A DNA stretch of 64,000 bases, from assembly GCA_964544145.1 (NCBI GenBank), contig CAZJAT010000009.1, positions 5,001 through 69,000 of the forward strand. Direction: 5' to 3'. The translations under genes and the position numbers were made by a program. Within the stretch, counting starts at the first letter, position 1; every line of letters begins with the position of its first letter. The DNA comes from an uncultured Bacteroidales bacterium (GTDB taxonomy: Bacteria > Hydrothermota > 32-111). Shown here one piece after another: positions 58,514 to 59,570 of the stretch. The notes beneath the pieces were generated by a model that was not told the origin of the DNA, did no database searches, and was given only the letters and a program-made list of their open reading frames with translations.

Positions 58514-58541
58514 TTGACAATATGAGTAAAAGTAATATTAT
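58514..58541 (+). promoter_or_regulatory. sigma70 promoter for the small RNA and DUF3800 gene
   Basis: TTGACA (58514-19), 16 nt, TATTAT (58536-41). Predicted +1 near A58548, the first base of the RNA stem. Confidence 0.75.
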
Positions 58542-58547
58542 TATCAT

Positions 58548-58609
58548 AGTCGGCCGAGACAGTTGTAACACGACTGGTGAAAACTCTGTTTTCCTCGGTT
58601 GACTTTTTT
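58548..58609 (+). ncRNA. Candidate ~60-nt three-way-junction RNA ending in a U-tract
   Basis: P1 AGTCGGCCGAG/CTCGGTTGACT (11 bp, 2 G-U), P2 CAGTTG/CGACTG, P3 GAAAAC/GTTTTC, then a T-run. Confidence 0.65.
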
Positions 58610-58622
58610 ATTTGGAGGGGGT

Positions 58623-59372
58623 ATGCATCTAATTTATGTTGACGAATCTGGTGACGATGGCTTATCATCTGGGGCATCTGATTATTTTGTTAGATGTGGT
58701 TTAATACTTCATGATAGAAAATGGAGACGAATCAATAACAATGTAGTTAACTATAGGAAATCGAAAAAAATACCAATTGATGTTGAAATCCATGCGACAG
58801 ATATAAAAAGAGGGAAATCTAAAAAAAGATCAGGCGGAAAGAGAAAACTAATCTGTAATTGGTGGGGTAAGCATTTTAAAAAAGTAAATGAAAGAATTAA
58901 TGAATTAGAACGGATTTGTAATTTAATTAATAATTCAGACATTACCTTAATATTTGTAGCAATTGATAAGGCAAAAATAGATAGAAATAAAATCGAGAAA
59001 AATACTATTAAGAATCGCTCTTGGGAATATTTGATTGAACGAATAAATTTATTTCTAATTTCTCAAGAAGATAAGTGCGGAATGATAATCTCTGATGCTA
59101 TTGAATCTAATATTGAGAGTGAACATAGAAATTTTGTTAAAGCCCTAAAAAGGAAGTCCAAGCATATTAATCCTGAACAGTTTATTGAGACAATATTATT
59201 TGAGCCATCAGAATCATCTAATTTGCTCCAATTGGCTGATGTAGCATCTTATTCATTTTTCAGACATATTAATTATAACGATTCGACCTACTTTAATCAT
59301 TTGAAATATAGAGTTTTTGAGTTTGATGATCCAAGAGAGAGAAATTCGGGAATAAAGATATGGCCAGAATAA
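58623..59372 (+). CDS. DUF3800-family RNase H-fold protein
   Basis: IYVDESGDDG, EIHATDI, ESSNLLQLADVASY. ATG at 58623 has a GGAGG RBS (ORF track starts at 58599). Confidence 0.85.
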   Translation: MHLIYVDESGDDGLSSGASDYFVRCGLILHDRKWRRINNNVVNYRKSKKIPIDVEIHATDIKRGKSKKRSGGKRKLICNWWGKHFKKVNERINELERICNLINNSDITLIFVAIDKAKIDRNKIEKNTIKNRSWEYLIERINLFLISQEDKCGMIISDAIESNIESEHRNFVKALKRKSKHINPEQFIETILFEPSESSNLLQLADVASYSFFRHINYNDSTYFNHLKYRVFEFDDPRERNSGIKIWPE

Positions 59373-59389
59373 AAATAATAATCGAATAT

Positions 59390-59538
59390 AGTCAGTATTG
59401 ATCAGAGTCCCCAAACCGGGGCACAAAAATACAAAAAAATCAATCAGTTTCAAGACGCATATTTTTAAGTTGCAGGGAAGTCATGGATCCCGCATCAGGT
59501 GCGGTGTAACCCTCACGAGGCGGAAGTAAAAAACATGT
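59390..59538 (-). ncRNA. Candidate structured RNA downstream of and convergent with the DUF3800 gene
   Basis: GC-rich hairpins (CCGCA/TGCGG 59490-504, CCT/AGG 59511-20, GGGA/TCCC 59475-91, CCCC/GGGG ~59409-21) in AT-rich DNA, directly after a minus-strand promoter. Confidence 0.55.
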
Positions 59539-59542
59539 GTCC

Positions 59543-59570
59543 AATATATGATGCATCCGAGACATGTCAA
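59543..59570 (-). promoter_or_regulatory. Antisense-facing sigma70 promoter with no cognate protein gene
   Basis: Minus strand: TTGACA (59570-65), 16 nt, TATATT (59548-43). Confidence 0.65.

Follow-up and report, generated by a model that had tools for sequence, protein, structure and literature searches.

A DUF3800 gene and a conserved three-way-junction small RNA form a compact, mobile two-gene module

The RNAs associated with DUF3800 genes have been a puzzle since 2017, in that many unrelated structured RNAs are tied to one uncharacterized RNase H-like protein. Weinberg et al. (2017; PMC5737381), who described these motifs without proposing a function, found 11 unrelated RNA folds that accompany DUF3800 genes and observed DUF3800-I on either strand and at either flank of the gene. 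In the literature, we found no later paper that assigns a function to DUF3800-VI, the motif that will concern us most. The same type of protein is also encoded beside retrons and class 2 CRISPR effectors, and its defense settings include type VII retrons (PMC7736814), accessory genes of Cas12a2 and Cas12a3 (PMC10910872, PMC13594972), and accessory genes of Cas13 (PMC12669027, bioRxiv 10.64898/2026.08.25.746378). Here, we analyze a DUF3800 locus in a stretch of 64,000 nucleotides from an uncultured bacterium (GenBank assembly GCA_964544145.1, contig CAZJAT010000009.1, positions 5,001 to 69,000), which is referred to as the window. A first-pass annotation had singled out positions 58514 to 59570 of the window as a DUF3800 gene bracketed by two structured RNAs. 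We find that the locus is a self-contained and mobile module of two inseparable genes, namely, a small RNA gene and, after it, the DUF3800 gene.

The window is AT rich (34.7% G+C). Between the end of a cyclase-AAA_16 (STAND-type) gene at 58166 and the start of lepA at 59721, both of which the first-pass annotation had named as neighbors and both of which were verified, there is a single credible open reading frame (ORF), located at 58623 to 59372 on the forward strand. The promoter that had been proposed ahead of the RNA and the GGAGG ribosome binding site ahead of the gene were also found. The features of the locus are as follows:

58514-58541, forward strand: small-RNA promoter, with the -35 element TTGACA at 58514-58519, a 16-nt spacer, and the -10 element TATTAT at 58536-58541; 11/12 match to the consensus
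58548-58604, forward strand: three-way-junction small RNA of the DUF3800-VI type, identified by fold, covariation, and the covariance model R1 (see below)
58604-58612, forward strand: U tract (UUUUUUAUU), directly 3' of helix P1 of this RNA; read directly from the sequence
58614-58618, forward strand: Shine-Dalgarno sequence GGAGG, 4 nt ahead of the ATG; read directly from the sequence
58623-59372, forward strand: DUF3800 gene, 249 amino acids; identified by Pfam PF12686, homolog alignment, and an AlphaFold2 model
59373-59570, no strand assigned: downstream spacer with a minus-strand promoter-like site; outside the conserved module

A mechanical ORF list places the start of the DUF3800 gene at TTG 58599; the conserved N terminus M-H-L-I-Y-V-D-E-S-G in the homolog alignment identifies ATG 58623 as the true start.

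The upstream RNA is a genuine, conserved, and covarying partner of the DUF3800 gene. The segment 58548 to 58604 (~57 nt) folds with -25.9 kcal/mol (z = -4.55; 0 of 200 shuffles were as good) and is followed by UUUUUU, in agreement with the ~60-nt three-way-junction RNA with a U tract that had been read from the sequence in the first pass. The fold consists of helix P1 (58548 to 58558 paired with 58594 to 58604), a junction A at 58559, hairpin P2 (58560 to 58566 paired with 58570 to 58576), a GU linker (58577 to 58578), and hairpin P3 (58579 to 58584 paired with 58588 to 58593). Genome, metagenome, and viral collections were searched for related loci with protein similarity as the only criterion, and contigs encoding named homologs were added; the small subfamily around the window protein is referred to as clade A. 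A number of observations can be made on these loci. (i) The RNA was found just upstream of the gene, on the same strand, in 24 of the 24 clade-A loci that had at least 42% protein identity and enough upstream DNA (window included); the hosts include an archaeal metagenome-assembled genome (MAG), Fibrobacterota, Treponema, and Bacteroidota. (ii) In a structure-blind MAFFT alignment, 92.7% of the cells pair and compensatory changes occur at 15 of 23 pairs, whereas pairing was only 31 to 50% in a control in which the partners were slid by 1 to 3 columns. (iii) RNAalifold arrived independently at the same three-way junction. (iv) Sequence is most conserved in P1 (GCGAC...), at junction A, in the opening three pairs of P2 (C-A-G/C-U-G), and at the G that follows P2; every pair of P3 covaries, and the P2 and P3 loops differ in both sequence and length. 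The covariance model R1, built from clade A only, scores the window RNA at 66.5 bits.

The statement in the first-pass annotation that Rfam holds DUF3800-associated motifs is right, but no Rfam model detects the window instance. The Rfam scan of the window gave no DUF3800 motif at the gathering score, and there was none at E ≤ 10 on 58100 to 59760 or on the 96-nt slice 58530 to 58625; matches at E ≤ 10 to Plastid-rpoB, 6A, and TUC338 were taken as chance. The covariance model of DUF3800-VI (RF02915; gathering threshold, 35 bits) was likewise without a match in the clade-A loci L001 to L007. Distant full-length homologs (23 to 28% identity, mostly from Acidobacteria; clade C) have a Rfam-called RF02915 just upstream of the gene, and the consensus bracket pattern of RF02915 is identical to the fold in the window. 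R1 found the Rfam-called RF02915 instances L009 to L012 at the same coordinates, together with more than 20 further clade-C loci (E values of roughly 1e-5 to 1e-11). Since a model built from clade A only recovers bona fide RF02915 instances, the window RNA is a divergent relative of DUF3800-VI that lies beyond the reach of the Rfam model. A 53-sequence model alignment has compensatory changes at 19 of 22 pairs, bearing in mind that an alignment fitted to the model leans towards structure, and in it the first pair of P2 flips cleanly, being C-G in 27 sequences and G-C in 21. The window RNA and RF02915 share the order of their elements (P1, one junction A, the P2 hairpin, a two-nucleotide linker starting with G, the P3 hairpin, P1 closing directly, and the U tract), and both adjoin a full-length homologous DUF3800 gene, with P1 ending 18 nt ahead of the ATG in the window. 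They differ in the first pair of P2, which is C-G in the window and G-C in the Rfam clade, and in their partner proteins, those of the Rfam clade being only 23 to 28% identical to that of the window. The window locus is a further member, in a new subfamily, of the DUF3800 RNA-protein pairs and a divergent sister of DUF3800-VI.

Three observations point to the RNA as an independent gene. (i) A TTGAC-type -35 plus a -10 element, 16 to 17 nt apart and with the -10 ending 3 to 10 nt before the motif, was present in 21 of the 24 clade-A loci, whereas 2% of random positions in the same loci scored at least 10/12. Given that the position of the promoter is conserved, transcription should start at the first bases of P1; the start predicted for the window is ~58548. 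Over the whole window, sigma-70-type promoter-like sites of at least 11/12 are rare, with 11 on both strands versus 3.8 expected from composition-preserving shuffles, and 3 of the 11 fall inside 58224 to 59570. (ii) The U tract always comes after P1 and is kept in all three clades, even where no ORF follows on that strand; together, P1 and the U tract form a putative intrinsic-terminator-like 3' end of the small RNA. (iii) In the third clade, clade B, the homologous RNA lies downstream of the DUF3800 gene on the opposite strand. R1 located it in five loci:

L006: 5707-5770, minus strand: clade-B RNA
L008: 2538-2601, minus strand: clade-B RNA
L093: 1937-2000, minus strand: clade-B RNA
L095: 3707-3770, minus strand: clade-B RNA
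L154: 3771-3834, minus strand: clade-B RNA

Protein identity is 30 to 36% for the first four of these loci, which are of Planctomycetota type wherever the source names the organism, and 26% for L154, a metagenome contig. A TTGACT -35 and a -10 element are found just upstream of the RNA in 4 of the 5 loci, and in all 5 the U tract overlaps the convergent gene's stop codon by 3 to 6 nt. Because promoter, structure, and terminator are kept while strand and side change, the RNA is not merely a 5' leader. Tight linkage in either orientation would be expected of two products working together.

Three further observations concern these RNAs and their loci. In clade A, position 5 of P1 (58553 paired with 58599) is an A-U pair or, as in the window, a G-U pair, and clades B and C have a conserved A.C mismatch there; this position may be a recognition feature of the RNA. 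In L006, L093, L095, and L097, the DUF3800 gene comes directly after a gene with the same conserved C-terminal end (...EEVNLETAFMRLTKG..VQ*), the product of which presumably resembles an ABC-transporter ATPase; the L097 contig stops short of any place where an RNA could have been seen. Finally, a hammerhead-like reading of the string 'CUGAUGAGG' in L006 was rejected, since a hammerhead core needs longer junction strands than those present (1, 2, and 0 nt); the string is composed of a P2 strand, the linker, and P3.

The arrangement of the two genes bears on how much protein is made. The spacer between the end of P1 and the start codon measures 5 to 24 nt in 43 of the 45 same-strand loci (18 nt in the window), which leaves no room for a promoter of the gene itself, and the DUF3800 gene should thus be transcribed by read-through of the terminator of the RNA. 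GGAGG-type Shine-Dalgarno sequences occur in most clade-A loci, not in all, and in several loci the ATG directly follows the U tract without a Shine-Dalgarno sequence. With a terminator before the gene and a crowded start codon, protein levels are likely to be kept well below RNA levels. At two clade-A loci, the ORF is broken and the upstream RNA is intact: there is a frameshift near residue 115 in L007:5001-5770 (RNA, 61.7 bits) and a stop at the invariant Arg24 in L092:722-1480 (RNA, 68.3 bits).

The 249-residue protein carries the RNase H-like acidic motifs that had been pointed out in the first pass. It matches Pfam PF12686 (DUF3800) over profile positions 1 to 149 of 149 with 67.2 bits (cut-off, 21; E = 3.5e-18). 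Its relatives are few: ~55 proteins at 41 to 56% identity were found in a collection of 5.8 billion proteins, and only 8 matches with E ≤ 1e-30 were found among 1.84 billion cluster representatives. The alignment columns under YVDESG, EIH, and QLAD are invariant or nearly so (D7, E8, E55, H57, Q203, and D206), and the invariance of D7, E8, E55, D158, Q203, and D206 in an alignment of 25 homologs suggests that the protein is probably catalytically competent. Both motifs of the PF12686 family, DE at the N terminus and QxxD at the C terminus, are present as D7/E8 and Q203/D206. An AlphaFold2 model made from 25 homologs (pLDDT, 86; pTM, 0.84) has archaeal RNase HII 1eke as its best Foldseek match in the PDB (E = 1.6e-5; TM, 0.49 to 0.54), followed by other entries for RNase HII, RNase HIII, and human RNase H2A (structural alignments at 10 to 14% identity); a RuvC entry does not come up until E = 2.6, and a sequence search of the PDB matched no chain and returned only noise. 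The N-terminal beta-strand of the model ends in the D-E pair, which we liken to the catalytic motif of RNase HII. The protein is therefore modeled as a type 2 RNase H-like fold and is a candidate nuclease. It likewise contains a lysine/arginine-rich insertion at approximately residues 62 to 90, which we take to be without a counterpart in RNase HII and which could be an RNA-binding surface. An RNase H-like fold for DUF3800 is in keeping with the work of Mestre et al. (2020; PMC7736814) and with that of Altae-Tran et al. (2023; PMC10910872).

To what extent the module is tied to its surroundings can be seen from its neighborhoods. Elsewhere, it has no conserved protein neighbor; the small RNA is the only conserved one. 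In L163, it lies between fucose isomerase and a sugar kinase, inside a fucose operon, and in a Treponema locus it is found beside clpB. In other loci, the neighbors include an AAA_21 ATPase, an MmeI-type restriction-modification enzyme, and transposases, as well as GmrSD and a DACNV-domain protein, a TIR-CHAT-STAND protein, an NA-iREase1-WD40 protein plus AAA_21, and an IS1595 transposase. In a predicted viral contig (L171:1888-3783; IMGVR_UViG_3300024054_000540), the module comes right after the major head gene (gpT) of a Mu-like phage, a position typical of prophage accessory ('moron') genes. Defense or mobile-element genes immediately adjoin the module in about two thirds of the sampled loci. 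This association with defense islands, for which ~15 loci were considered, is suggestive, and the anti-phage role considered in the first-pass annotation is in line with it. In the MAG locus L001, the module is situated between a tRNA gene (4735-4806) and a tyrosine-recombinase (phage integrase) gene (5931-6896, minus strand), which suggests that it is carried there on a tRNA-targeting integrative element. Orphan phage-borne copies of the RNA were sought with a pattern scan of viral contigs, which gave 2 matches, neither of them R1-scoring or near a DUF3800 gene, and tblastn against GenBank phages and PLSDB plasmids matched nothing.

The window segment that holds the module is itself extra DNA. 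The source organism has its affinities with candidate division WOR-3: LepA of the window is 71% identical to that of a WOR-3 MAG, and its best relatives reach 85%. In the relatives L168 and L169 (LepA, 80% identical), a sigma-54 activator gene, 71% identical to window positions 52630 to 54018, is followed by lepA after 164 nt. As the activator stands directly before lepA in these relatives, ~54019 to 59690 (~5.7 kb) can be considered additional DNA at a variable spot. It comprises a TPR gene, a 90-amino-acid ORF, the cyclase-AAA_16 (STAND)-type gene of 828 amino acids, and the DUF3800 module, and it looks like a variable accessory or defense hotspot. The 828-amino-acid product shows weak similarity to Pycsar cyclases. 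A functional link of the module with the upstream cyclase-STAND and TPR genes was rejected, since no homologous module elsewhere has such neighbors. At the left edge of the segment, 54060 to 54420 is low-complexity DNA with (TTTA)n runs, a poly-T stretch of ~25 nt, and many tandem-like ACCAGC(T/C)-type hexamers in two blocks. The 347-nt spacer ahead of the module (58167 to 58513) is purine rich and has a further promoter-like site (58224 to 58251, 11/12) and two tiny overlapping ORFs with Shine-Dalgarno-like sequences (~58282 to 58362, 26 amino acids; ~58359 to 58448, 29 amino acids); it showed no conservation across the fetched loci and no stable fold. At the other end, what appears to be a conserved TTTACT-N17-TATGAT promoter of lepA lies within 59685 to 59723, with the -10 ending 8 nt before the ATG (59721), and the ~50 nt holding it are kept in the relatives L167, L168, and L170; this spacing suggests that the lepA mRNA is leaderless or near-leaderless. 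On the two sides of the module, at 58416 to 58429 and 59511 to 59524, stand the arms of an imperfect, GC-rich inverted repeat of 14 nt (TCCGCCTCAGGAGG / CCTCACGAGGCGGA). It was considered as a pair of mobile-element ends and rejected as probably due to chance, nothing comparable being found in L163, L164, L166, and L171.

The reading that we favor, with a probability of roughly 40%, has the RNA bind the nuclease and hold it in check as an antitoxin would, with the module acting as a compact abortive-infection or addiction cassette. According to this proposal, (i) the small RNA would be made in excess and would bind the nuclease through the conserved junction and the P1 and P2 sequences; (ii) the bound RNA would keep the nuclease inactive or tightly limited; (iii) the same RNA element would throttle the gene in cis, as terminator read-through would be needed and the stable P1 lies 18 nt ahead of the start codon; and (iv) the nuclease would be released, and could then cut nucleic acid, once the RNA is lost or titrated, for example when a phage infects or transcription is shut off. 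We favor antitoxin-like restraint because the layout enforces an excess of RNA over protein, with the start codon crowded by P1; because the neighborhoods and the literature place DUF3800 in defense settings; and because the RNA persists where the ORF has decayed. A number of points weigh against it. The strict co-occurrence of RNA and gene fits a model in which the RNA is an obligatory cofactor equally well. P1 encloses two hairpins and is not a canonical terminator hairpin, and a simple terminator scan made no call. In L163 and L164, the module lies among housekeeping genes, and no PADLOC model recognizes the DUF3800 protein. The related sequences all come from metagenomes or MAGs, and the R1 E values, obtained with a shortened calibration, are only rough.

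The alternative that survives best, although we consider it rather unlikely, is that the RNA is an obligatory cofactor or scaffold, the three-way junction of which activates, stabilizes, or positions the RNase H-like protein in a ribonucleoprotein; activity would then depend on the RNA instead of being inhibited by it. Co-occurrence of 100% and tight linkage in either orientation agree with this alternative, as does the concentration of conservation at the junction and in P1 and P2, which is what a protein-binding site should look like; the 11 unrelated folds that Weinberg et al. (2017; PMC5737381) noted for RNAs at DUF3800 genes can be counted in its favor as well. The layout, which suggests that the protein is held far below the RNA, fits restraint better than stoichiometric assembly, and the RNA survives at loci with a broken ORF, but neither argument is decisive.

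An improbable alternative is that the RNA acts only in cis, as a 5' leader that serves as a transcription attenuator or a translation-control element of the DUF3800 mRNA. In the window and in clades A and C, the element is indeed located between promoter and ORF, ends in a U tract, and stands 5 to 24 nt from the start codon, and Rfam labels RF02915 as Cis-reg. This alternative is contradicted by the five clade-B loci, where the RNA is convergent with and downstream of the gene; moreover, transcription starting at the first base of P1 leaves no upstream sequence for an antiterminator alternative. A role in cis may nevertheless exist in addition to one in trans.

A very improbable alternative sees the module as a selfish mobile cassette, in which the RNase H-like protein, with the RNA as its substrate, guide, or recognition element, would work for the spread or maintenance of the cassette rather than for the defense of the host, RNA-guided action of the TnpB/IscB kind included. 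Homologs of 42 to 53% identity are scattered over an archaeon, Fibrobacterota, Treponema, Bacteroidota, and a Mu-like prophage, one insertion is inside a fucose operon, and the window segment is absent from close relatives, all of which count in its favor. Against it, the cassette shows no consistent terminal inverted repeats and contains no transposase; the predicted fold is RNase HII-like and not RuvC-like, and the RNA has no variable guide-like extension.

The claim that the gene is bracketed by two structured RNAs did not withstand analysis of its downstream half. The GC hairpins reported there do exist (e.g., 59409 to 59424 and 59486 to 59500), as does the convergent minus-strand site TTGACA-N16-TATATT (-35 at 59570 to 59565, -10 at 59548 to 59543, 11/12), which may or may not fire; a structured RNA was not found. 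Folds of 59373 to 59545 on both strands were no better than shuffled sequences (z = -0.13, -0.34, and -0.64), no terminator was called in the downstream region, and there was no Rfam match; R1 with filters off gave a single match in the window and hence no second copy of the motif. When 59373 to 59720 was compared by BLAST with every fetched locus and with the remainder of the window, only contigs of the same organism were returned, and the 300-nt stretches downstream of 20 clade-A genes, compared all against all, had nothing in common. The GC-rich piece is absent ahead of lepA in relatives, in which only the last ~50 nt with the lepA promoter are kept. In clade A, the conserved, covarying RNAs that the first-pass annotation had advised seeking on the flanks of homologous genes are hence present upstream and missing downstream. 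That a second RNA, either a minus-strand small RNA or an antisense RNA to the 3' end of the gene, is made from the site at 59570 to 59543 as part of the system is most improbable: in spite of hexamers that match at 11/12, with ~0.1 such sites expected by chance in the 1.66-kb region, the segment folds no better than shuffled sequence, lacks a terminator and a Rfam or R1 match, has nothing conserved in the 19 other clade-A loci, and is absent ahead of lepA in relatives.

The locus adds to the DUF3800-associated RNAs a subfamily that was missed by the Rfam model, along with clear support, from the comparison of loci, for an RNA gene that is distinct from the protein gene, carries a promoter and a terminator of its own, and occurs on either strand with respect to it. 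As a solitary, mobile, and very compact module of ~0.9 kb, it is suited to experiments. If antitoxin-like restraint is the true mechanism, the module would represent a new RNA-protein toxin-antitoxin or defense class and would hint at what DUF3800 might do in CRISPR and retron loci; otherwise, the locus is one more instance of a known motif. It is possible, though doubtful, that such modules constitute an uncharacterized two-component RNA-protein class for defense or addiction, in which a single, nonrepetitive three-way-junction RNA would serve an RNase H-fold effector as its sensor or antitoxin. Such a class, if real, would explain why eleven or more unrelated RNA folds are found at DUF3800 genes, as well as the part played by DUF3800 next to retrons, Cas12a2/Cas12a3, and Cas13.

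Comparison with known systems places the module as follows. (i) RNA-guided nucleases with an RNase H fold (TnpB/IscB, Cas12, and Argonaute) have a RuvC or PIWI domain, whereas the best folds here are RNase HII and RNase HIII. No CRISPR arrays or terminal repeats were found near the module. The suggestion that the system might be RNA guided was abandoned: the RNA is without a variable single-stranded segment, its unpaired stretches being located in hairpin loops and measuring at most 9 nt, and the transcription start and the terminator determine where it begins and where it stops. (ii) With type III toxin-antitoxin systems (ToxIN, CptIN, and TenpIN), the module shares the succession of promoter, noncoding RNA, terminator, and a nuclease gene that relies on read-through, with more RNA than protein as the outcome, and also a compact, mobile, and defense-associated nature. 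The type III-like character that the first-pass annotation had proposed thus stands for the layout and falls for membership. The RNA is single copy and structured, whereas type III antitoxins are tandem repeat arrays processed by the toxin, and no tandem repeat array was found at the window locus, where R1 matched once; the protein is RNase HII-like and not of the ToxN, AbiQ, CptN, or TenpN type (Pfam finds DUF3800 only, and PADLOC none); and clade B breaks the gene order, with RNA and gene convergent. (iii) Type 2 RNases H (RNase HII and RNase H2A) resemble the protein in the predicted fold (TM of ~0.5; E = 1.6e-5), from which it is set apart by the basic insertion at ~62 to 90, the invariant Q-x-x-D motif, and the lack of a PDB match at the sequence level. 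(iv) The DUF3800 proteins of type VII retrons and of CRISPR loci (TPR-DUF3800 with Cas12a2/Cas12a3; Csx32 with Cas13) differ from the window protein, which is a stand-alone single domain of ~250 amino acids without a reverse transcriptase, Cas, or TPR partner. The two groups have in common the Pfam domain, the defense setting, and a structured nucleic acid partner, and the N-terminal DE motif described by Pfam and Mestre et al. (2020; PMC7736814) corresponds to D7 and E8 of the window protein.

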